From the NCBI GenBank assembly GCA_030649135.1, contig JAUSGI010000006.1, positions 43,534 through 107,533 on the forward strand: a DNA stretch of 64,000 nt, given 5' to 3'. Source of the stretch: a bacterium. GTDB lineage: Bacteria; Patescibacteriota; Minisyncoccia; Phycocordibacterales; Zambryskibacteraceae. How positions within the stretch are numbered: position 1 is the stretch's first letter; every line of letters starts with the position of its first letter. Positions 5,591 to 36,358 of this stretch are shown here, one piece after another. A model generated the notes under the pieces. It had not been told where the DNA came from. It saw nothing but the letters and a program-made list of their open reading frames with translations, and did not search any database. The position numbers and the translations under genes were made by a program.

Positions 5591-5893
5591 ATGGGATATC
5601 TAATTCTTATCTTTTTCTTTGGAATCATACCGTCTATATTGTTATTGTATTTCGCGAGAAATTATTTTAATTGGAAAGCATTCGGCATTACAGTCTTTAT
5701 AGTATTTGTAGCGGCTTTTATCAGTGACTATATCGGAATTGAGAAAGAACTGTGGACCTATGGCATCAGTGGTACACAAACAATTGGTAAAACCGTCTTT
5801 GGCGTCCCAATAGAAGATTTAATATTCTTCCTCACAATTCCCCCATGGATTATTGGTAGCTACGAGTTATTGAAAGCTAAGTTTTCAAGATAG
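5591..5893 (+). CDS. hypothetical membrane protein (3 TM)
   Basis: 100 aa hydrophobic ORF. Confidence 0.4.
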   Translation: MGYLILIFFFGIIPSILLLYFARNYFNWKAFGITVFIVFVAAFISDYIGIEKELWTYGISGTQTIGKTVFGVPIEDLIFFLTIPPWIIGSYELLKAKFSR

Positions 5894-9474: not shown

Positions 9475-10209
9475 ATGATTTCGTCTATTAACTGGAGCGT
9501 AGAAAATTTCTTTGGTCTTTTCGCCCTTACCATGGGCTTACTTTGTAGTATCTACTTTTTCTATGAATGGGTCAGGCATTACAGAAAACAAAATTACCTC
9601 CTCTTGTGGTCCATTAGCTTAGCGCTTTTTTATGTATTTCTGATTCCGTTCATTCAAATAAAATTTAGCGAGATAATTATTCTTACTGATTGGACAAATT
9701 TTTTCATTCCAACAGTTCCCTTTATATTTTTGGGCTGGGTACTTATCTATTGGACCATAACTCAAATAAAATCGTCCGTAACGGATAGAAAATCAGCCAG
9801 ACTTAAGGTATTTCTTTTGTTTTGGGTCCTTGCATCTTTTATTTTTTATTTTTTCAGATTTTCTTCAACAGAAAACGGGAAGTTATTGTCAATTATCGGT
9901 CTTTTAATTTTCTTTATCACTATACATGTTTTCATTCTCTCAGCGTTATGGAAGTTATTTAAAACGGAACGTTGGCAAAAAAACATGCGGGTAAATGCTG
10001 GCATTATTTTTATAGCGAGCGCAATTATTATTTCTATCGTAAGATATCTGTTTCTTCTTAACAGCCTTATGAGACTTCCCGGAGATTTTTGGTTTTTGTC
10101 GATAGCATCGTTTGATTTCGTATTTATTTTAAGAAGTGTGGTTGTTATTCTATTAACTATTGGCTTTGTCCTGATACATAAGCACTATCTTCTCAAGTCT
10201 AGGATATAA
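9475..10209 (+). CDS. hypothetical polytopic membrane protein
   Basis: 244 aa with about 7 hydrophobic helices. Upstream extended -10-like tggtgtatact. Confidence 0.5.
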   Translation: MISSINWSVENFFGLFALTMGLLCSIYFFYEWVRHYRKQNYLLLWSISLALFYVFLIPFIQIKFSEIIILTDWTNFFIPTVPFIFLGWVLIYWTITQIKSSVTDRKSARLKVFLLFWVLASFIFYFFRFSSTENGKLLSIIGLLIFFITIHVFILSALWKLFKTERWQKNMRVNAGIIFIASAIIISIVRYLFLLNSLMRLPGDFWFLSIASFDFVFILRSVVVILLTIGFVLIHKHYLLKSRI

Positions 10210-10261
10210 ATATACTCCTTTTGTTTCTGTGTAATGGTTCTAACATCACTCACGGTGCGAA

Positions 10262-10489
10262 TTGGCTTTCAAACAACGTCTCAGGGAGAACTTGAGGGAC
10301 AAATTAGATGGAGACGAGGGTATGTATGAGCGTGAAACTGTAGTAAAAGATTTCGATGCTACTCGCGAGATACTTCTTAAAATTGGACCGATTGAAAATC
10401 AGATTTATCGTCTGAAAGGACTGGACGACAGAAATTACACTAAACTTACCTTCTCCGAACAAATAAAGCGCGCAGAAAACAAATTTTAA
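10262..10489 (+). CDS. hypothetical small protein
   Basis: 75 aa ORF, charged; no recognised motif. Confidence 0.3.
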   Translation: MAFKQRLRENLRDKLDGDEGMYERETVVKDFDATREILLKIGPIENQIYRLKGLDDRNYTKLTFSEQIKRAENKF

Positions 10490-10506
10490 TACAAAACAGT
10501 TGGCGG

Positions 10507-10543
10507 AATAGAAAAGGAAGTCGTAGAGTCACCTACGACTTCC
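10507..10543 (-). terminator. rho-independent terminator for minus-strand transcripts
   Basis: Perfect 11 bp stem ggaagtcgtag/ctacgacttcc with a 6 nt loop. On the minus strand it is followed by ttttctatt. Confidence 0.55.
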
Positions 10544-11289
10544 AAAAACAATGTCGGGCACATCACTACACTCTCGGGAGCCACCCGAGGAGGGATTGCA
10601 AACTCCATCCCATGTGAAAACTCACGAGCGAAATCGCTATCACGATGATTACGAAGACGATGGTCCAGTCATAACTGTAGCTAGGCTTAGGCGTCGCCTT
10701 CGGTCTCTCGACAATCCAGAGTAAGTTATGAAGGTCATCCCTCTTTCGCATTTGCTTTCTCCTACCGTGCCTAGCGCTTGGCACATCTGGTTGTGAGAAC
10801 AATCGCAGTGCCATCCCCATTGATGACAGCGGAGGAAGTAACTTGCTTGCATCCGGCGGTGATGTAGAGAGTCATTTCTTGTTCATTCAGCACCCTCTTA
10901 AAGTCTCTGGGCGCGAGATTCTCCGAAGTGCTGACCTTCCGGCTGATGACTTGCACCTCCTCTAGAGGGGGAGCATTAGCGCCTACAAATGACCATGCAG
11001 ACATCACCAGCAACACCGCCACTAGCACCTCTACCATCACGCCCTCCTTCGTTCTCTGCGTTTTGTTCGGTACGGAGAATTACGATTGAGAACGGCGCAC
11101 CACGCAGCGCCGTCCTTTCCCGCTTCTACATTTCCTGCGAGAAACACATGACCCCCAACGAGAATGTCTTCCGAACCTACGTCATCGACGGGATGTTTAT
11201 CACATCGCCTCGGACTCATCGTACGCGGATCGAAGTCATCGCCCAGACATACGGGGCACACTTCAGCAACCCCTGCCATGTCTACCATG

Positions 11290-11556
11290 TCAGACCTCCA
11301 TTGTCTCGAGAAGTGTGCTTCTATCCAACTCCTGACGATTAGCACAACGGCAGACCTTCTCACTTCCCGGTACCTTAAACTGCAACCACAAAGTGCTGTT
11401 GTACCAAACCCTGATCTCGTACCAGACGTACCAGCAGTGATACGGGACTCCATCTTCAGTAAAATGGTACAGTTCATCTTCCATCTTGCACCATCCATTT
11501 CTTGTATCGAAGAGCTCTCCTACCTTCATTGTACCCCTCATACAACCATCTTTCAC
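11290..11556 (-). CDS. hypothetical small protein with an aromatic Gly/Trp/Tyr-rich repeat-like segment
   Basis: Strong RBS (ctaaggagggg, 8 nt, ATG) on the minus strand. GWCKMEDELYHFTEDGVPYHCWYVWY is reminiscent of YG/cell-wall-binding repeats. Other overlapping ORFs in 10566..11500 are unresolved. Confidence 0.4.
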   Translation of the reverse strand: MKDGCMRGTMKVGELFDTRNGWCKMEDELYHFTEDGVPYHCWYVWYEIRVWYNSTLWLQFKVPGSEKVCRCANRQELDRSTLLETMEV

Positions 11557-11657
11557 TTTTGTTATCCCCTCCTTAGTACGCCCCCATTTTACGATATAAT
11601 TATAGGCAGAAACGATCTTAGTTCTAAATAAAATCGTCGGAGAGAGGGAGGGTTACC

Positions 11658-12401
11658 ATGTACTATCAGCTTCTCTTGGTGTTCGGTGTCGCAATGCTCT
11701 TGTCACAAGTGGCCGTGCTCGCGACGACCATCCAACTGCATCGTGCCGCAACACATGCAACGCTTGGAGGGCTCGTCCTCGATCCGAAGGTTGCATGGGC
11801 ATGCAATCTCATCCTGTGGATTACCACTGGTCAGAGGAGGAGGCAGTGGGTGGCCGTGCACCGCAAGCACCACGTCTTCACAGACAAGGTGGGTGACCCG
11901 CACAGCCCACGCGTGCTCGGCTTCTGGCATGTCCAACTCGGCAACGTCTTTTACTATGTGTGGGCGCTGAGGGAGAAAGATATCCTGGACAAGTACGCTC
12001 CCGATATCCAGGAAGACAAGTGGGACCGGTGGCTCTTCAACCACGGCAAGCTTGGTCTCCTGCTAGGAACGGTAGCACTCTGCTCGCTCATGGGCATGTG
12101 GTGGGGACTGCTCACGGCACTAATTCATGCCGTGACATACATCTTCGTCATCGCCTCCTCCATCAACGGCCTGTGCCACACCTACGGCTACAGGAACTTC
12201 GATAACACAGCGACTAATCTGCGTCTCCTCGCGTGGATCACCGGAGGCGAAGGGTTGCACAACAACCATCACGAATACCCAACTCGTGCGAAGTTCAGTT
12301 TCTTCCCGGGCGAGTGGGACCCAGGGTGGTCGATCATCAAGCTTTTGATCAGAGTCAACCTGGCCACCATGAAGAAGACCCTTTGGACAGTCCCGAGGTA
12401 A
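11658..12401 (+). CDS. membrane fatty-acid (acyl-lipid/acyl-CoA delta-9-type) desaturase
   Basis: Three histidine boxes in order: HRAATH, HRKHH, HNNHH, with hydrophobic N-terminal helices. 247 aa. Local GC is clearly higher than the flanks. Confidence 0.75.
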   Translation: MYYQLLLVFGVAMLLSQVAVLATTIQLHRAATHATLGGLVLDPKVAWACNLILWITTGQRRRQWVAVHRKHHVFTDKVGDPHSPRVLGFWHVQLGNVFYYVWALREKDILDKYAPDIQEDKWDRWLFNHGKLGLLLGTVALCSLMGMWWGLLTALIHAVTYIFVIASSINGLCHTYGYRNFDNTATNLRLLAWITGGEGLHNNHHEYPTRAKFSFFPGEWDPGWSIIKLLIRVNLATMKKTLWTVPR

Positions 12402-12435
12402 GGATAACGGAAGGGCAAAACCTTCCTTCGACCCA

Positions 12436-12471
12436 ACCCTGGGCGCATAGCGCCCAGGGTTGTTTTCATTC
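12436..12471 (+). terminator. rho-independent terminator after the desaturase gene
   Basis: Perfect 12 bp stem aaccctgggcgc / gcgcccagggtt with loop ata, then gttttcatt. Confidence 0.7.
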
Positions 12472-12552
12472 ACCACCAAGAGTTGTGCACATTCTGTCAA
12501 CAGGATATCCACCAACTTATTCTGATGACATTGTTGTGTTAGAATCACTCAC

Positions 12553-13098
12553 ATGAAGAAAGTGGTAGTCATCTTGGTTATCATCGGGGCGGTTGCACTT
12601 ATATACACCATGCGCAATGGTTCTGCCACAACAAGTAACGTTCCGACAGTAAGCGATAAGGGTATCTTCCGTCCCGACCCGTCGGGCGCCACTTTCACCT
12701 TCGACGACGAATCGGTTACTCTGTCGGCAGGACGAAATGAAACAACCATTACCCCGGGAAGTGCGCTAGTAGAAGAAACAGCCTTGTTGGACCAATTTGC
12801 CTACGGGGATATCAATGCGGACGGCAAAGAGGACACCGTCCTACTTTTGGCCCGTTATGGTGGCGGTTCAGGAACATTTATATATTTGGCGGCCTTTGTT
12901 TCCGGGCCAGTCACTTACCGCGGGTCGGAGGCCACTTTTATCGGAGATCGAGTGTCTCCCCAATCTCTTTCTATAAATAAAGGCGTTGTGACCATACAAT
13001 ATTTAGACCGTAAAGCGGATGAATCTTTTGCTGCCGAGCCGACCGTGCCGGTATCAAAGCAATTTGTTTACAAAGCCGGAGGATTTGAAGAAAGATAG
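12553..13098 (+). CDS. hypothetical membrane-anchored or secreted protein
   Basis: N-terminal TM/signal MKKVVVILVIIGAVALIY; 181 aa. Confidence 0.5.
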   Translation: MKKVVVILVIIGAVALIYTMRNGSATTSNVPTVSDKGIFRPDPSGATFTFDDESVTLSAGRNETTITPGSALVEETALLDQFAYGDINADGKEDTVLLLARYGGGSGTFIYLAAFVSGPVTYRGSEATFIGDRVSPQSLSINKGVVTIQYLDRKADESFAAEPTVPVSKQFVYKAGGFEER

Positions 13099-13121: not shown

Positions 13122-14909
13122 ATGGAAATAAGGAATATAGCTATTATCGCGCACGTCGACCACGGTAAAACCACTCTTACCGACGCTTTGATGCGAGAGA
13201 CGGGAATGACGGGGGAGGGGGTAACGATGGACTCAAACGCTCTAGAACTGGAACGTGGTATTACCATTTATGCCAAAAATACCTCCATTTTTTACAAAGA
13301 TACGAAGATAAATATTGTCGATACTCCCGGCCACTCTGACTTCGGCTCGGAAGTGGAACGCGTCTTGCGCTCCATAGATACAGTCCTTCTGGTTGTAGAC
13401 GCGCAGGAGGGACCGATGCCTCAAACTCGTTTCGTTCTGAAGAAGTCACTCGAGCTCGGTTTGAAACCAATCGTAGTGATAAATAAAATTGATAAGCCGG
13501 CGGCCCGGCCGGAAGTGGCACATGAATTGGTGCTTGAACTCTTCCTGGAGCTGGGTGCCAACAATGAGCAGATTGAATTCCCCACCGTTTTCGCTATCGG
13601 TAGAGAAGGTGTTGCAAAGAAAAAGTTGACCGACGAATCAAAAGACCTAACCCCCCTACTCGATACTATTCTCGAACACGTGCCGCCCGCCGAGCAGAAA
13701 CTTGATGCACCTGCCCGTTTACAACCCTTTAACCTCGCTTACGATAATTTCCTCGGGCGTCTTGCTATCGCACGTATTTACGAAGGCACGTTGAAAAACG
13801 GCCAAAAAGTTTTTGTGAAAAAGCCGGATGGAGAAACTTACGCGGGAAAGATAAGCAAACTCTACACTTTCGAAGGCCTGAAAAGGAAAGAAGTTGCTGA
13901 AGCCGTGGCTGGAGATATTTGTATGCTCGCAGGACTGCCACAAATTTATATCGGTGACACTATCACGGCAAGCGAGGATACTCCGGCTCTGCCGGCTATT
14001 TCGGTCGATGAACCAACTATTTCTCTTAATCTTGTGGTAAACGATTCCCCTTTCGCCGGTCGTGTCGGTAAATTCGTCACCGGTCGCCAGATCCGTGAGC
14101 GCCTTGAACGCGAACTGGAAGTTAACGTTGGACTCAAGATAGATTTTTCCTCCAGTGAATTCATGACCGTCTACGGTCGGGGCGAACTTCATCTTGCTAT
14201 CCTTCTTGAGAATATGCGCCGCGAAGGATTCGAACTCCAAGTTTCGCAGCCGCATGTTTTGGAAAAAACAGAAAACGGCAACAGACTTGAACCCTTCGAA
14301 GAGGTGCTGATAGATGTGCCGGAACAAATGTCGAGTGCTGTTATCTCCAAGCTAACGGAGCGACGCGCCAGTCTTATGGATATGAAGACGGAAAATGGAC
14401 AGACTCGTATTACCTTTGAGGCGCCTACCCGCGGACTATTGGGGTATCGTAATCAATTTATTATTGATACTAAAGGTTTGGGCATTCTTTCCTCTCGCTT
14501 TACCGCGTTTAAACCATATGCCGGAGAGATGAAACATGAGAAGGGTGGCTCAATGATATCTATGGAGAACGGCAAAGCGCTCGCTTTCTCGCTCGATAAT
14601 CTACAAGACAGAGGGGTATTATATATCAAGCCAGCGGAGGAGGTATATGAAGGACAGGTTATCGGTAATACCTCAAAGGGTGAAGACCTTTATGTTAATC
14701 CAACTAAAGGTAAACAGCTCACCAACATGCGCGCTTCTGGTTCTGACGAAGGTATTTATCTGACCCCCGCTTACAAACTTGATATAGAACGAGCCATGGA
14801 GATTATGGGTGACGATGAATATATAGAAATTACTCCGGATGATGTCCGTCTCCGAAAAATCCTTCTGACACAACAGGCACGTTCAAAGGCTCAAAGAAAG
14901 ACTGTATAA
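13122..14909 (+). CDS. typA: translational GTPase TypA/BipA
   Basis: [24 protein letters not shown] (G1), DTPGHSDF (G3), NKIDK (G4). 595 aa, the typical BipA length and domain order. Confidence 0.9.
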
Positions 14910-29037: not shown

Positions 29038-29403
29038 CTAGCTTTTAAGATCTAGTTTCTTTACTAGACCCATGGTCATCTTAGAGACTTCAGCAAGAAG
29101 CCCGTTGATTTCAATATACTTCTGTTCAGGAAGAAAAGAAAGCTCCTTAGCAATCTCAATCTGAGTTTCCAATTCTGATGCCGAACCTAAAGCAATGCTG
29201 AGAAAATGCAGAAAATCCTTGGTCGTATGTCTACTTCGACCTTCTGCTATATTCGAAGGGATGGAAACGGCGGAACGGCGTATTGGAGAAGTAATCCCAT
29301 AAATCTCTGATTTGGGAAAATTTTCAGTTACCTCATATACGGCCTTGCAGAGTTGAATTCCTTTCTGCCAAACTGTTAAATCTTTATGAGAATAAATTGG
29401 CAT
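29038..29403 (-). CDS. four-helix-bundle protein of the 23S rRNA intervening-sequence / DGR Avd-like family
   Basis: Hallmark SNIAEGRSRHTTKDFLHFLSIALGSASELETQIEIA. 121 aa. Confidence 0.8.
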   Translation of the reverse strand: MPIYSHKDLTVWQKGIQLCKAVYEVTENFPKSEIYGITSPIRRSAVSIPSNIAEGRSRHTTKDFLHFLSIALGSASELETQIEIAKELSFLPEQKYIEINGLLAEVSKMTMGLVKKLDLKS

Positions 29404-31744: not shown

Positions 31745-32623
31745 CTAGAGAGATTGCTCGGCCTCAATAAATTCCTCTAAATTGCCGTTAAGAACTTTTT
31801 CGACATCGTGAACCTCAACATTGGTGCGATGGTCCTTGACCATCTTGTATGGATGAAGCACATAGGAGCGGATCTGGTTGCCCCATTCTATTTGAGTAGT
31901 TTTAGAAATATACATGCCCTTTTCTTTGGCCTTACGCTCGTCTTCGAGCAGTTTGTATAACTTCGCTTCAAGCAGAATTTGGGCTTTCTCTCTATTCTGC
32001 ACTTGAGAACGTTCGGATTCCACATGCACCGAGAGGTTAGTGGGTATGTGTACGAGACGTACTGCCGTTTCGCGTTTATTGACATTTTGCCCCCCGGGAC
32101 CGCTTGACTTCGAATACTCGGTCTTAATATCTTCCGGCGGAATTTTCACCTCGTCCGGTTTCTCAAATTTAGGAATAACCTCCACCATCGAAAACGAGGT
32201 GTGCCGAAGCGCTTTGGCGTTGAAAGGCGAGATACGCACCAGACGGTGAACGCCCGATTCATTCTTCAACGTGCCATAAACATTTTTGCCATTTATCTCC
32301 AGAGTGATATTTCTATAACCGCCATGGTCATTTTCATTTTTATGGATAATAGAGTATTGCCACTTTTGTTTATCAAAAAATTTCAAATACATTTCTAAAA
32401 GAATTTTGGAGAAATCCTCGGCGTCATCTCCCCCCGCGCCGGAGAAAATGGTCATGACAGCCCCACCCTTGTCATACTTTCCTGCTCCCATAAGTTCACT
32501 TTTCAGTGATTCATACTCACGGATAGTGGCTTGAGCCCTGTCTTTATCCGCCCAAAAGTCCGCCGAGCTCATCGCTTCCTCGATTGCTTCGATTTTTTGC
32601 TTTATTTCTTCCGGCTTGGACAT
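31745..32623 (-). CDS. prfB: peptide chain release factor 2, short form
   Basis: SPF tripeptide (RF2-type) and GGQ motif GPGGQNVNKRETAVRL. 292 aa. No programmed +1 frameshift is apparent; the start overlaps the upstream stop (TAATG). Confidence 0.85.
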   Translation of the reverse strand: MSKPEEIKQKIEAIEEAMSSADFWADKDRAQATIREYESLKSELMGAGKYDKGGAVMTIFSGAGGDDAEDFSKILLEMYLKFFDKQKWQYSIIHKNENDHGGYRNITLEINGKNVYGTLKNESGVHRLVRISPFNAKALRHTSFSMVEVIPKFEKPDEVKIPPEDIKTEYSKSSGPGGQNVNKRETAVRLVHIPTNLSVHVESERSQVQNREKAQILLEAKLYKLLEDERKAKEKGMYISKTTQIEWGNQIRSYVLHPYKMVKDHRTNVEVHDVEKVLNGNLEEFIEAEQSL

Positions 32624-33018
32624 TATTTAAACTGGATTTGAAAATTATACATCCCCATCGCGCAAAGTCCCTGTAGGGTCGAACCCGATTCTTGAGGGGG
32701 CAACTCTACCAAAGTCTCGCCTGACGGCGGCAAATTATTGCGGTAACCCAAACTTGGAATTACCAGTGCCGCCGAACAATCGAAGGTGCCCAGCGTATTG
32801 ATTTTGATAACCGTCGGTATGCCCGCTTCGGCGACCGTCATTTTAGGCGAATAGCCGCCCTTAGCACTAATTTCAATTATTTGTTTGCCGTCAGTCACAC
32901 TCACGTTATTAGCATCTTGTGGCGTAGTACCGTCTGAATCTTTGCGACTGCCAACAAGCATAATAGCTCCTCCAATAAGAACGACAGTAACCAGTATAGA
33001 TATAGCTGTTATTCTCAT
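32623..33018 (-). CDS. membrane-anchored cupredoxin-like small protein
   Basis: N-terminal TM helix. C-terminal beta-rich domain with Cys/Met/His residues (FDCSAAL...GLCAMGMYNF). Adjacent to the copper ATPase. Confidence 0.45.
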   Translation of the reverse strand: MRITAISILVTVVLIGGAIMLVGSRKDSDGTTPQDANNVSVTDGKQIIEISAKGGYSPKMTVAEAGIPTVIKINTLGTFDCSAALVIPSLGYRNNLPPSGETLVELPPQESGSTLQGLCAMGMYNFQIQFK

Positions 33019-33042
33019 AAGTTAGTACTTTAGCAATTTTAG

Positions 33043-34062
33043 TCAGAAATTAAAAATCGGCTGGATAATACCAGCGGCGGCCAAAACATTGACGAGGTTA
33101 AAGAGGCCGAAAAATATTACCACAAGACCTGCCGTTTTAAAGAATACCCCCGACTGCGCCTTCTTATGAATACCAAGCGAGCTGAAACTCAAGAGTGCCA
33201 ACACTGGCAGAGTACCCAACGCAAATGCCGACATAATCAACGCTCCGGCCATAAAACTTCCGGTTGTCAAAGTGTAAATCTGCATCGATTGGGTAAAGCC
33301 ACATGGCAAAAAGAATGTTACTGCGCCAATCAGGAGGGGGGTGAGGGTATGATTTAAGTTTTTGAGACCGTGAATATGTTTACCGACAAAACTTGGGAGA
33401 GTCGGCTGAAGTTTCTTGGCCCACGGGAAGACATCGAGGAGGTTAACGCCCAGAATTAACAAGACAAGCGCCACGGCCAAACTTAAAACTAAAGTGGCGG
33501 TCGCGCCAAGTTGAAATGCTGAGCCAAGCGCGCCGATTGCACCACCTAGCAGAAAGAAAGATACCAGTCGGCCGACATGGAACAAAACCTGCGGGCGCAC
33601 CTTGTCGCCCTCTTTGGCAAAATTCGTGGACATGGAAAGCACGAGACCTCCCACCACCGCCATACAAGTAGAGACGGAAGCAATGAGACCCACTACAAAC
33701 GCCGTGCCGTAACCAACCTCCGATGCCGTGATTAAATTCACAATGCCGAGCTTTTGTAAAATAATAAATAGAGCAATAAACGCTCCCGCGGCAGGAAGAG
33801 CAATCCGGAAATCAGACCACTTGACCGAGTGTCGCTGTTTTTCGACAGAAAGGGTGTAACCATGCGGTTTCAATATCACGCTCAAATCTCGCGCAATGTG
33901 TTCCGCTTCCTTGTCACCGAAGTCGCCGGTGACTTCAACATTAAAATGCTTAAGTGATGCTTTCACATTGGAAACTTCCGGTACCGCACCGAGTTCACTT
34001 TCTATAAGCACCGCGCATGAGTTGCAGTGCATACCGTTGACGTGAAATATACAGGTTTTCAT
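33043..34062 (-). CDS. heavy-metal-associated (HMA) domain fused to a polytopic CcdA/DsbD-like membrane protein
   Basis: N-terminal HMA fold with GMHCNSC. Multi-pass membrane domain with conserved Cys in TM helices (STCMA, LPCGF). 339 aa. Confidence 0.5.
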   Translation of the reverse strand: MKTCIFHVNGMHCNSCAVLIESELGAVPEVSNVKASLKHFNVEVTGDFGDKEAEHIARDLSVILKPHGYTLSVEKQRHSVKWSDFRIALPAAGAFIALFIILQKLGIVNLITASEVGYGTAFVVGLIASVSTCMAVVGGLVLSMSTNFAKEGDKVRPQVLFHVGRLVSFFLLGGAIGALGSAFQLGATATLVLSLAVALVLLILGVNLLDVFPWAKKLQPTLPSFVGKHIHGLKNLNHTLTPLLIGAVTFFLPCGFTQSMQIYTLTTGSFMAGALIMSAFALGTLPVLALLSFSSLGIHKKAQSGVFFKTAGLVVIFFGLFNLVNVLAAAGIIQPIFNF

Positions 34063-34066
34063 AGAG

Positions 34067-36358
34067 TTATAATGTTTTCGCTTTTATACGAAGTGAATTC
34101 GATACTACCGACACAGAGGACATCGCCATCGCAAACCCCGCAAAGACCGGTGAGAGAAGCCAACCAAAAATTGGGTAAAATAATCCTGCCGCCAACGGAA
34201 TTCCGACAATGTTGTAAATAAACGCCCAGAAAAGATTCTGTTTAATACCTCGCATAGTTAATTTGGATAACTTGACTGCTTTAACCAGTTTAGAGATATC
34301 TCCGCCAAGAAGTGTAATACCGGCGGTCTCAATCGCTACGTCAGTGCCAGTGCCCATGGCAATTCCCACGTCAGCTTGAGCCAGCGCCGGCGCATCGTTG
34401 ACGCCATCCCCCGCCATGGCCACCACTTTGCCTTGTGACTGTAAGTCTTTTATCTTTTCCAATTTATCCTGCGGCGAGACATGGGCGATGACATCGTCAA
34501 TACCGACCAGAGAAGCCATATGCTTTGCCGCTTTCTCGTCATCCCCCGTCAGCATGACGACCTTGATGCCCAGTTTATGAAGGTCGACAATCGCTTGTTT
34601 GGACTCTGTTTTAACTTCGTCCGCCACCATCACAAACCCGAGCACATTGTCTTGGGTTGCAAGAATGACAGGCGTTTTACCTTGCGCGGTGAACAAATCA
34701 ATTTTGGAAGCATCGAATGATACCCCGAGGTCTTTAATAAGTTTGGCATTACCGACATAATATGTCACACCATTGACTACTCCTTTCAGCCCTTTGCCTT
34801 GGATACTTTCGAAATCGGTGACACTTTCTGCATTTATATTTCTCTCCTGCGCATAATTCACGATTGCGTGCGCGATTGGATGTTCTGATTTTTTTTCAAG
34901 CGAAGCAAGAACTGATATGAGCTCGTCGCTCTTTAGGTTAGACATGTTTTGAATATCAACCAGAGTCGGCTTGCCGATAGTGATGGTGCCGGTTTTATCG
35001 ACGATAACCGTATCTACTTTATGGAGTTTCTCAAGAGTAGCCGCGTCTTTAATTAAAATACCTTCTTTGGCGCCCTTACCCACTCCCACGATAATCGCCG
35101 TTGGTGTCGCTAAACCAAGCGCGCAAGGGCAAGCGATGACGAGCACCCCCACAAATGACACCAGTCCGTAAGACAACGCCTGTGAGAATCCAAGCAAACC
35201 GGTACCGATAGAGAGCCAAGCCCCTAAGGTCAGAAAAGCGATGGCCAGAGTAATGGGTACGAAGACGCTTGAGATTTTATCGGCCAGAGCTTGAATCGGC
35301 GCCCTGCTTCCCTGTGCATCTTCCACCATCTGTATGATATGCGCGAGTAATGTTTCCGATCCGACCTTGGTAGCTTTAAATATAAACGACCCGCTGGTAT
35401 TTATCGTTGCGGCAACCACAGTATCTCCAACCTTCTTTTGAACTGGCATTGATTCACCCGTGACCATAGATTCGTCGATAAACGAAGAACCCTCCGCAAC
35501 GACACCATCAACCGGAATCTTTGCCCCCGGTTTGATAATAATAAGATCGCCATGCTTGACCTCACCTACGCCAACTTCTACTTCTTTTCCATCGCGCATT
35601 ACCAAAGCAGTCTTGGCTTGTAGATTCAGAAGCTTTTCGATAGCATCGCCAGTTTTTAATTTCGACCGGGCTTCCAAATATTTTCCAAGCGCGATAAAAG
35701 TAATGACGATAATGGTGACGTCATAATATGTCACACTAACGTCTATGAAAGGTTTGAGCACCTCCTCAAACGCAGTCACTGCCAAACTGTACAAGTATGC
35801 AGTCAGGGTACCGATACCAATAAGCGTATCCATATTGGCTTTGCCATAGCGGAGGAAACGATAGAAGCCGAGTAGGTATGGTTTTCCCACTACAAAAAGT
35901 GTATACGTCGCCATTAAAGGCAAAAGGTGATGAAAAAATTCACTAGTTACTTCACCCATTACCGGTGCTGCATTATATCGGGCCAGGATATCCCAGCTCA
36001 TGATAAAAATACTGACTGCAGCAAGCGGTATGGCCGACACCACTTTCGACCGCATATCCACCACTTCCGCAAGCTTTTCTTTCTTTGACTGATTAACGCC
36101 TAAGTGCGCGGCGTGTTCGTCTACCGACATCCCCATTTCTCGAGCAGTGGGTACGAGTAGAGAATATCCAAGCGGTTCAATCTGTCGGGAAAGAGCTTCG
36201 GGATTTGTCTTGGATGGGTCAAAAGAGACTTTGGCTTTTTCCGTGCCATAATTAACCTTAACAGACTCGACTCCCTCAACTTTTTTAAAAGTCTTTTCAA
36301 TCGTTGACGAACATGAGGCGCAATGCATTCCTTTCACCTGATAAGTCTCGGTGCGCAT
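34067..36358 (-). CDS. copA: copper-translocating P1B-type ATPase
   Basis: N-terminal HMA GMHCASC; CPC motif [12 protein letters not shown]; DKTGTIT phosphorylation site; [10 protein letters not shown] hinge. 763 aa. Confidence 0.9.

Follow-up and report, generated by a model that had tools for sequence, protein, structure and literature searches.

The locus analysed here raises the question of what a GC-rich block, holding a membrane fatty-acid desaturase gene and a stretch of short overlapping reading frames, represents in the genome of a bacterium thought to be poor in lipid metabolism. The gene could be a recent import or an old resident, and the short frames could be the wreck of a longer gene, partners of the desaturase or genes in their own right. 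The best joint explanation, and probably the correct one, is that two independent units stand back to back: a desaturase cassette (des) and a divergent operon of small genes. The window, i.e., the whole 64-kb stretch of DNA that was analysed, belongs to a Zambryskibacteria-like Parcubacterium (CPR), since the best named matches of its TypA are those of Candidatus Zambryskibacteria / Parcubacteria (89% identity); this agrees with the reduced-genome lineage supposed in an earlier, sequence-only reading of the same DNA. That reading had also described the block as richer in GC than its flanks and the desaturase as atypical in composition, and both descriptions hold. The two highest 1-kb GC bins of the window are 11001-12000 (0.521) and 12001-13000 (0.520), against a window mean of 0.458; the lead in bulk GC is modest, with other bins reaching 0.50-0.516, and the contrast is sharpened by a gene of GC 0.30-0.37 just upstream (9.3-10.4 kb). 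At third codon positions, des has the highest GC (GC3) of 61 ORFs (0.734; mean 0.474, sd 0.090, z about +2.9), and the small genes g1-g3 lie at 0.57-0.68 as compared with 0.46-0.48 for p181 and typA, the two genes that follow des. A large non-coding RNA in the ORF-poor stretch was considered and dropped, because Rfam 15 gave no match in 10150..12600 even at E <= 5; at the gathering score, the window contains tRNAs only.

The des gene (11658..12401, plus strand) encodes a predicted short membrane di-iron fatty-acid desaturase of the DesA/SCD1 type, 247 aa in length. Its His boxes (HRAATH at residue 28, HRKHH at 68 and HNNHH at 201) follow the three-box pattern of the superfamily (HX3-4H, HX2-3HH, HX2-3HH) and, together with a further motif, N170-x3-H174, are invariant among 40 homologues. 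PF00487 matches residues 7-210 (E = 3.8e-14; 53.5 bits versus a gathering cutoff of 29.7), and the 247-aa three-His-box desaturase first read from the sequence is therefore confirmed by its ORF, its boxes and its domain score. At the family level, the best match is NCBIfam NF049918 (DesA_fam_desat; 174 bits, E = 5.5e-51), which aligns over model positions 11-242 of 385; the score stays below the equivalog cutoff of 400 bits and the C-terminal region of the model is left uncovered, so that des is, by profile comparison, a relative of the DesA family and no equivalog of it. A sequence search with des found SCD1 (E = 2.6e-10), whose structures were the only solved ones matched, and the AF2 model of des (pLDDT 76, pTM 0.76) gave significant fold matches in the PDB only to the SCD1 entries 4ymk, 6wf2 and 4zyo (TM 0.68, probability 1.00). 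The match to the mammalian enzyme (4YMK, 6WF2, 4ZYO) spans HRxHH, N-x3-H and GEG-HN-HH, and N170 and H174 align with the 'NSAAH' motif of SCD1. On this sequence and model evidence, the predicted des product belongs, as a short form, to the DesA/SCD1 branch of the membrane di-iron desaturases. Homologues of about 244 aa number in the thousands, and those in JGI are labeled delta-9 desaturases, a label that reflects annotation only. A scan of genome contigs with des alone, whose 8-mers are poorly conserved, returned only 24-29% identical relatives in Myxococcota and Bacteroidota.

Comparison with the two best-known relatives indicates how the enzyme may work. Like Pseudomonas aeruginosa DesA (NF049918), the des product is colinear with the model from the N-terminus and has one transmembrane helix before box 1, three His boxes and a transmembrane hairpin; unlike the Pseudomonas type, it stops ~140 residues short of the end of the 385-position model, and it comes from a CPR bacterium that presumably lacks fatty-acid synthesis. 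The helices predicted for des are a single hydrophobic N-terminal one (residues 1-27) and the hairpin at 130-175, that is, three in total, whereas SCD1 has four, two of which precede box 1; the single helix before box 1 agrees with the alignment of the DesA model from position 11. The des product and SCD1 share about 20% identity, and SCD1 uses acyl-CoA with cytochrome b5, whereas the des product has no known partner. CPR bacteria are believed to obtain membrane lipids from other cells. Zhu et al. (2006, as cited in PMC4273635) reportedly found that the acyl chains on which DesA works are those already built into phospholipids, a mode that would be suited to a lipid scavenger. The scanned ORFs of the 64-kb window include no Fab/ACP genes, and complete lipid biosynthesis has been reported missing from CPR genomes (PMC7242380). 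By analogy, the des product most likely acts on the acyl chains of membrane lipids, and it is reasonable to infer that a lipid-scavenging host desaturates acquired chains in this way; substrate, regiospecificity and O2 use are inferred from the same analogy. The predicted O2 dependence of the enzyme is hard to square with the anaerobic life usually ascribed to CPR bacteria.

Among the competing explanations, the one that survives best is that des encodes a di-iron membrane oxygenase that is not a delta-9 acyl-lipid desaturase, having instead another regiospecificity, a hydroxylase activity or another lipid as its substrate. Such a reading would account for the score far under the DesA equivalog cutoff, for a weak FA_hydroxylase match (E = 0.007), and for the missing C-terminal extension and the three helices in place of the four in SCD1; moreover, no biochemistry of the short ~244-aa subfamily was found in the literature searched. 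On the other hand, both the spacing of the His boxes and N-x3-H conform to the SCD1/DesA (delta-9) type, SCD1 is the only PDB match by structure as well as by sequence, and the delta-9 annotation of the homologues, which is no test, points the same way. An activity other than delta-9 desaturation is unlikely on these grounds, albeit the most plausible of the alternatives weighed here, and a delta-9 acyl-lipid desaturase is the reading retained.

The des gene is equipped with predicted control elements of its own. A promoter-like site (11573..11600, plus strand) consists of a -35 element TTAGTA (11573-11578), a 16-nt spacer and a -10 box TATAAT (11595-11600); it is kept as TTAGTA...TACAAT in the sister genome L001, and with TATAAT in other lineages. 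Eight nucleotides after the -10 box lies a leader motif, AGAAACGATCTTAGTT (11608..11623, plus strand; consensus AGAAANGATYTTNGTT), which occurs once in the window and which, among 97 fetched loci, was found only upstream of CPR des genes (10 loci); in L001 it is broken by an insertion of ~11 nt. RNAalifold gave no consensus structure for eight des leaders, for which reason a riboswitch or thermometer was dropped in favor of a DNA site, and the motif, judging from its sequence conservation, is probably an operator that lies close to the transcription start or on it. Its location immediately downstream of the -10 box resembles that of the FabR/DesT-type operators of Shewanella desA and Pseudomonas desB; in Shewanella desA, the predicted +1 is the first position of an 18-bp FabR-like motif (PMC4273635). 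AGAAANGATYTTNGTT does not resemble that motif in sequence and is only a weak inverted repeat, and no TetR-family gene adjoins des. Downstream, an intrinsic terminator (12434..12462, plus strand) forms a stem of 13 bp, 10 of them G-C, that is closed by a 3-nt loop and has TTTTCATTC behind it (dG = -27.4 kcal/mol); the terminator read earlier as a perfect 12-bp stem is present, with one pair more than was counted. Relative to L001, it shows two compensatory pair changes (A-T to G-C and T-A to A-T), and a GC-rich hairpin, differing in sequence, stands downstream of des in all nine lineages.

Nine lineages, out of 28 related ones, share the order des-p181-typA, with des directly upstream of p181-typA in, for example, L061, L067, L076, L068/69, L072, L084/86 and L090; one more (L077/78) has a decayed remnant, and des is absent in about 17. 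In L001, the identity to the window is 78% for des, 80% for p181 and 93% for TypA, with 80% DNA identity over 3.5 kb. The identity matrices of des and p181 are closely correlated (r = 0.87, Mantel p = 0.0002), and the GC3 of des exceeds that of its neighbors in all 10 CPR lineages examined, tracking the GC of each genome. It is likely, from this comparison of loci, that the cassette has long occupied the slot immediately upstream of p181-typA in this clade, being inherited mostly vertically and lost repeatedly, and is not a recent import. The GC3 excess, the patchy distribution (9/28) and a des copy located right after tRNA-Asn in L054, which the des tree places with that of L090 (bootstrap 95), leave room for an old acquisition or for movement within the clade.

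The sequence-only reading had regarded the gene as horizontally acquired, and a recent arrival of des, perhaps with g1-g3, as an island from a high-GC donor must be weighed. The nearest non-CPR homologues occur in soil bacteria with 65%-GC genomes, in which the GC3 of des is 0.85 and identity reaches 60-63%; des stands far above the window in GC3, and g1-g3 also exceed p181 and typA. In addition, des is missing from the close relatives L052 and L053 (TypA 90-92%), and the region from tRNA-Asn to p181 is hypervariable in relatives. However, a recent island should be absent from the syntenic site and discordant in phylogeny, whereas des occupies that site in nine lineages, leaves a remnant in a tenth and co-varies with p181. 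Since the GC3 excess is found in every lineage and follows the genome's own GC, it does not date the arrival of the gene. The CPR genes have a clade-specific leader motif in common, the identity of the window des to any non-CPR sequence is at most 59-64%, and NJ trees, the backbone of which carries no usable support values, place the CPR sequences outside the clade of the soil bacteria. Hallmarks of mobility are likewise lacking, as no tRNA lies near des in the window and the neighboring genes show no integrase or transposase matches. A resident gene had been expected to combine ordinary composition with syntenic orthologues; the orthologues are syntenic, and the composition stays atypical. 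Recent acquisition is largely refuted by these observations and is quite improbable, and long residence of the cassette is preferred in what follows.

On the opposite strand, a predicted promoter-like site for g1 (11628..11599, minus strand) overlaps that of des, and the small genes run away from it. The first, g1 (11541..11290, minus strand), encodes a predicted soluble protein of 83 aa with the conserved pattern HFT-DGV-HC...FKxPxS..CxC, the invariant residues H26, H35, C36, C64 and C66, and a window-specific aromatic insert, WYVWYEIRVWY. Its start is placed at the ATG at 11541, which is kept in L001, whereas the GTG at 11556 is not. Homologues in L001 and L055 are 44-47% identical (dN/dS = 0.44), and an all-against-all search of 1.84e9 representatives returned only these; a 552-aa match from the representative search was discarded as a repeat protein that matched the aromatic segment only. 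Next comes gX (11288..11037, minus strand), a candidate ORF of 83 aa within a window-specific, in-frame 252-bp insert that is absent from L001 and flanked by the direct repeat ATGGTAGA. It starts 1 nt past the g1 stop (TGAcATG), and its stop overlaps the g2 start (TGATG). The predicted protein has a zinc-ribbon-like CPVC-x15-CDKH and a basic tail; its frame is the best of six by a codon model (+6.9 bits), with GC1 > GC2 > GC3. Protein-collection, related-locus, viral-contig and sequence-database searches gave no gX homologues, and gX is taken to be protein-coding from its frame statistics and junctions. Plus-strand ORFs across the insert (10989..11342 and 11164..11631) were rejected, having worse frame scores and an antisense-like GC1/2/3 pattern.

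The third gene, g2 (11037..10771, minus strand), encodes a predicted protein of 88 aa, the N-terminal segment of which is hydrophobic and would be either a signal peptide or an anchor (...VGA|N); two Cys of the C-terminal part are conserved. It is 53% identical to its L001 counterpart (P0121), outscores the five other frames in the codon model (+16.4 bits), has only two members among 5.8e9 proteins and is annotated by NCBI as hypothetical protein Q7R69_01850. The last gene, g3 (10751..10566, minus strand), is preceded by AGGAG 8 nt upstream of its ATG and would encode 61 aa with one transmembrane helix (~24-52) and a conserved C-terminus, MGWxLQxL..LPRV; it shares 55% identity with the L001 orthologue (dN/dS = 0.33). 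The operon ends at a terminator (10516..10543, minus strand) with a 12-bp stem and a 4-nt loop, followed by TTTTCTATTC (dG = -18.7 kcal/mol), and its place is taken in L001 by another hairpin with a T-run. Searches of Pfam, NCBIfam, PHROGs, PADLOC and PDB sequences yielded nothing usable for g1, gX, g2, g3, p181 or a 75-aa ORF; a SecE match of g3 (E = 0.006) and a designed-Kelch match of gX (E = 0.011) were judged to be due to chance. Scans of viral contigs with g1, g2 and gX found no relatives, which leaves a phage origin without support. By these searches, g1, g2 and g3 are orphans, present in 2-3 genomes among billions of proteins, and the small genes are lineage-specific orphans of a hypervariable region, with predicted products that are most likely associated with the envelope.

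The possibility that g1-g3, with or without gX, serve the desaturase as accessory partners, either as a metal-binding electron donor, as rubredoxin does for AlkB, or as a membrane sensor or regulator, is suggested by several features. Both units share a divergent, highly conserved promoter region in the window and in L001, g1-g3 have raised GC3 like des, the invariant His and Cys of g1 and the Cys/His pairs of gX could bind a metal, and the window offers no other donor: neither ferredoxin, flavodoxin, cytochrome b5 nor rubredoxin was found among its scanned ORFs. However, g1-g3 are missing in the eight other lineages with des, and in L055 no des separates the g1 homologue from the p181-like gene next to it. 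The searches of Pfam, NCBIfam, PHROGs, PADLOC and the PDB revealed no similarity to a known redox protein or regulator, and the AF2 model of g1, built from 3 sequences, was uninformative (pLDDT 47). The distribution of the genes argues that g1-g3 are not functionally tied to des, and a partnership has little to recommend it.

Least credible of all is the idea, raised in the sequence-only reading as a frameshifted or recently decayed gene, that the minus-strand ORFs of 10566..11556 are the remains of a single longer gene or an assembly error: the stretch does lack a single long ORF and has several overlapping frames, as that reading had correctly noted along with the aromatic and N-terminal hydrophobic segments, the 252-bp segment is exclusive to the window, and g3 and gX are absent from the gene calls of the public protein collection, but the three ORFs recur in L001 with unchanged starts, stops and junctions (47-55% aa identity), the indels between the two are in-frame overall, pN is below pS throughout (g1 0.35/0.56, g2 0.32/0.76, g3 0.27/0.55), the genes meet at typical signals of translational coupling (TGAcATG, TGATG, and SD plus ATG), an identical sequence was independently assembled in a Logan contig (SRR13727527), and searches of 5.8e9 and 1.84e9 proteins found no longer homologue. 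A lack of conservation of the ORFs in every frame, named in that reading as a refuting outcome, is not what the sister genome displays. By comparative sequence analysis, g1-g3 are genuine, separate small genes with predicted products.

The model favored here is that des forms a self-contained cassette with its own promoter, a leader motif that would act as an operator, the 247-aa ORF and a private hairpin terminator. Its product, with nine conserved positions that would serve as metal ligands, an N-terminal transmembrane helix and a transmembrane hairpin, would take O2 and an electron donor and, by analogy, introduce a cis double bond, probably at delta-9, into the acyl chains of membrane lipids. 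In a CPR host unable to make fatty acids, des may adjust the fluidity of scavenged lipids, and a DNA-binding protein at the motif downstream of the -10 box probably gates its expression. The translationally coupled g1-(gX)-g2-g3 unit would diverge from the des intergenic region and end at its own terminator, giving a soluble protein containing Cys and His, a protein with a signal peptide or anchor, and a single-pass membrane protein. It is also tempting to speculate, though this extension is tentative and perhaps more doubtful than probable, that Zambryskibacteria-like CPR bacteria use an ancient, O2-dependent and separately regulated cassette to rework lipids acquired from their hosts, that the deepest diversity of the ~244-aa family lies in the Parcubacteria with the high-GC soil clade derived from it, and that the motif is the site of a CPR fluidity regulator.

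These observations imply that a conserved, syntenic and apparently regulated desaturase cassette in a CPR clade may provide a clonable candidate for lipid remodelling in situ, for which the 16-nt leader motif could serve as bait for its regulator. They also call for caution, in that a GC3 outlier resembling a fresh horizontal transfer can prove to be a lasting feature of a gene that is resident. Furthermore, the small-gene operon would add three orphan micro-proteins, predicted from sequence, to those of this lineage.

The desaturase gene (des; 11658..12401, plus strand) encodes a 247-aa protein with the His boxes HRAATH, HRKHH and HNNHH at residues 28, 68 and 201, the three-box membrane desaturase recognized in the sequence-only reading, plus N170-x3-H174. 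The protein passes the Pfam FA_desaturase profile, and its closest family is DesA of NCBIfam, which it matches over positions 11-242 of the 385-position model; the score of 174 bits is far under the 400-bit equivalog cutoff. SCD1 structures are its sole PDB relatives both by sequence and by fold (TM 0.68, probability 1.00; AF2 model, pLDDT 76, pTM 0.76). From hydropathy and the model, three TM helices are predicted (one N-terminal to box 1, two in a hairpin at 130-175), compared with four in SCD1. More than 6,000 homologues are mostly 239-246 aa long; thus, the short length characterizes a family rather than a truncated protein. On these sequence and model comparisons, the protein is placed with the DesA/SCD1 branch, as a short relative; it belongs to an already known kind of desaturase, and the NCBI annotation is already fatty-acid desaturase. 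Its regiospecificity, substrate and electron donor are putative: the enzyme would form a cis double bond in the acyl chains of existing membrane lipids, presumably using O2 and a reductant.

In the Zambryskibacteria-like clade, des is an old, mostly vertical and often lost cassette. The sister genome contig L001 has the same gene order as the window (g3-g2-g1 / des - p181 - typA, in which g1-g3 are small minus-strand genes divergent from des and p181 is a conserved downstream gene), with 80% DNA identity over 3.5 kb and protein identities of 78% for des, 80% for p181 and 93% for TypA. A metagenome scan with the p181 alignment yielded 42 further loci, which with the window make up 28 distinct lineages. 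In nine of these (the window, L001, L061, L067, L076, L068/69, L072, L084/86 and L090), des lies on the same strand directly upstream of p181-typA; one (L077/78) retains a remnant of ~100 aa, one (the L054 group) has a distal copy, and about 17 lack des in the available flank. The remnant is direct evidence for loss by decay at the slot upstream of p181; it lies at L077 66-362 and L078 1768-2064, spans residues 68-167 only, and contains an 80-codon ORF with a GC3 of still 0.75. Across the nine lineages, pairwise identities of des are strongly correlated with those of p181 (r = 0.87, Mantel p = 0.0002). Outside the CPR, the closest homologues (59-64% identity) group tightly in one clade; they come from 65%-GC genomes and occupy a different context (DUF1015-SerA-SerC-des-PcnB-PolA). 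In NJ trees, the backbone of which is without support values, the CPR sequences branch outside this group. Transfer of des within the Zambryskibacteria-like clade is possible, because the L054 copy groups with that of L090 (bootstrap 95), and the p181 proteins of these two are not especially close.

Horizontal acquisition of des was proposed in the sequence-only reading, and an island looked plausible before the wider scan, since the close relatives L052 and L053 are without des and the Zambryskibacteria contig L054 carries a 244-aa des ~6 kb upstream, directly after tRNA-Asn. However, synteny in nine lineages, covariation with p181, a GC3 excess in every lineage and a common leader motif indicate long residency, and recent transfer is not supported. 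The higher GC noted earlier is confirmed: the two GC-richest 1-kb bins of the window are 11001-12000 (0.521) and 12001-13000 (0.520) against a mean of 0.458, but the margin is small (other bins reach 0.516), and the visible contrast is largely due to a membrane-protein gene of 0.30-0.37 GC at 9.3-10.4 kb. At third codon positions, des is a true outlier (GC3 0.734, top of 61 ORFs; mean 0.474, sd 0.090). In each lineage, its GC3 is higher than in p181 and typA, by 0.04-0.25, and shifts with the GC of the genome concerned. Between the window and L001, synonymous sites approach saturation (typA dS about 1.45); des dS is 0.64, under that of typA, and the excess is nevertheless kept. Expression-linked codon bias as its source is ruled out by the GC3 of S16 (0.45) and RpoB/C (0.51-0.53).

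The gene has a private promoter-like site (TTAGTA-16-TATAAT, 11573-11600, plus strand), followed 8 nt downstream by a clade-conserved 16-nt leader motif, AGAAANGATYTTNGTT (11608-11623, plus strand), and a Shine-Dalgarno sequence, GGGAGGG. TATAAT followed by the motif is common to all CPR des copies, a further point against recent transfer; the motif occurs once in the window and, among 97 fetched loci, solely in front of CPR des genes. RNAalifold found no structure in the des leaders, and AGAAANGATYTTNGTT is a candidate operator on which a DNA-binding regulator might sit, as precedented by the FabR-like operator starting at +1 of Shewanella desA (PMC4273635). In L001 (9940-9985), the motif is split by an ~11-nt insertion (CAGAAA-aggtagagaca-ATCTTAGTTC); thus, regulation of des may differ between these two closest relatives. 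The terminator reported earlier is present (12434..12462, plus strand; 10 GC, 3-nt loop, then a T-run; dG = -27.4 kcal/mol), its stem counting 13 rather than 12 bp. Every des copy has its own GC-rich hairpin, and those of the window and L001 differ by two compensatory pairs.

TypA (13122..14909), the neighbour of des-p181, also shares 92% identity with the protein of another MAG and 88-89% with proteins named Candidatus Zambryskibacteria or Parcubacteria group, in agreement with the reduced-genome lineage proposed before, a member of the CPR. Other window content comprises housekeeping genes and a type IV pilus cluster, typical of CPR. Neither Fab/ACP genes nor a ferredoxin-type carrier were found among the scanned window ORFs. 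CPR genomes have been reported without complete lipid biosynthesis (PMC7242380), and our literature search found no papers discussing desaturases in CPR.

The p181 gene (12553-13098, plus strand) encodes 181 aa that include an N-terminal TM helix as well as a DINADGKED motif (FG-GAP/Ca-binding-like), has no Pfam, NCBIfam or PHROG match, and is always directly upstream of typA in the clade (40+ loci, 54-80% identity); it is a clade-specific conserved protein without family assignment. A conserved element precedes it (12480-12552), made up of CACAnnTnnnnnAACAGGATATCC, then TTATTC and TGTTAGAAT, an extended -10 box; within this element, ACAGGATATCC (12500-12510) contains the palindrome GGATATCC. 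In the window, ACAGGRTATCC is found a single time; among the 97 loci, it is nearly confined to sites upstream of p181 homologues, with or without des. In relatives, a hypervariable stretch extends from tRNA-Asn(GTT), located after VanY (L001 3678-3753; L052 67-142; L053 5118-5193; L054 616-691), to p181-typA; this tRNA is absent from the 64-kb window, the first 10 kb of which are accessory (DNA methylase, HAD hydrolase, HTH protein, methyltransferases, HD-domain protein).

The stretch 10566-11556 holds the overlapping short ORFs described earlier and no long one; Rfam gave no match there, even at E <= 5. On the minus strand, g1 (11541..11290) encodes a soluble 83-aa protein with invariant HFT, DGV, HC, FKxPxS and CxC motifs, in which the aromatic stretch WYVWYEIRVWY is an insert specific to the window; g2 (11037..10771; hypothetical protein Q7R69_01850 in NCBI) encodes 88 aa with an N-terminal hydrophobic segment ending VGA|N and two conserved Cys; and g3 (10751..10566) encodes 61 aa with a single TM helix and a conserved C-terminus. 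A frameshifted or decayed single gene, as suggested before, is rejected: alignment with L001 resolves the ORFs as separate (47%, 53% and 55% identity for g1, g2 and g3), the indels keep the reading frame overall, each of the three has pN < pS (0.35/0.56, 0.32/0.76 and 0.27/0.55), and an independent Logan assembly is identical in sequence. These comparisons indicate that g1, g2 and g3 are real orphan micro-genes. The unit has a promoter-like site (11628..11599) and a terminator (10543..10516), both on the minus strand, and its junctions TGAcATG, TGATG and AGGAG-N8-ATG read as coupling signals. Between g1 and g2, 252 bp bounded by the direct repeat ATGGTAGA are missing from L001 and hold an exactly fitting minus-strand ORF, gX (CPVC-x15-CDKH), whose frame is the best of six (codon model, +6.9 bits) with coding-like GC1 > GC2 > GC3; since no homologue was found in any collection searched, gX is a candidate gene only.

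Members of g2 number two among 5.8e9 proteins, and those of g1 three among 1.84e9 representatives. The third g1 (L055) is followed by a 71-aa tail-anchored protein; it is oriented divergently to a p181-like gene, and des is absent from between them. Relatives of the tail-anchored protein take up this divergent position in L052, L070, L073, L081 and L087. This family (57-71 aa; ..P.xEF[IV]S[KR]M..E.R...I[EK]RGI and a C-terminal TM; L052 5820-5993, L055 386-601) is found in lineages without des. In the eight other lineages with des, the genes upstream are unrelated. Thus, the slot upstream of (des)-p181 holds changing small membrane/secreted sets, and by sequence comparison g1-g3 are best read as one such set, not as des partners. 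Searches with g1, gX, g2 and g3 gave no family, defence, phage or structural match, and AF2 on g1 was uninformative; our best guess is that g1-g3 are envelope-associated accessory proteins.

Elsewhere in the window, a 75-aa ORF (10262-10489, plus strand; strong coding score of +26.9 bits, best of six frames) converges on the g3 terminator, with no L001 homologue, no family match and no exact copy in the public protein collection. A 100-aa ORF (5591-5893, plus strand) adjoining a HAD-like hydrolase matches the lycopene cyclase domain (PF18916, E = 5e-8) in this CPR genome. On the minus strand, a copper-handling cluster (32623-36358) encodes a 131-aa cupredoxin-like protein, a DsbD_2 + HMA membrane protein and an HMA P-type ATPase, and a 121-aa "23S rRNA-intervening-sequence protein" (29038-29403; PF05635, bAvd-like) lies between trmD and a transglutaminase-like gene in a low-GC patch (0.39).

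The odd composition of des is no evidence for recent transfer. What is added here is the conserved cassette structure and locus of des in a CPR clade, with a candidate operator, and the resolution of the neighbouring short ORFs into what appear to be orphan micro-genes.
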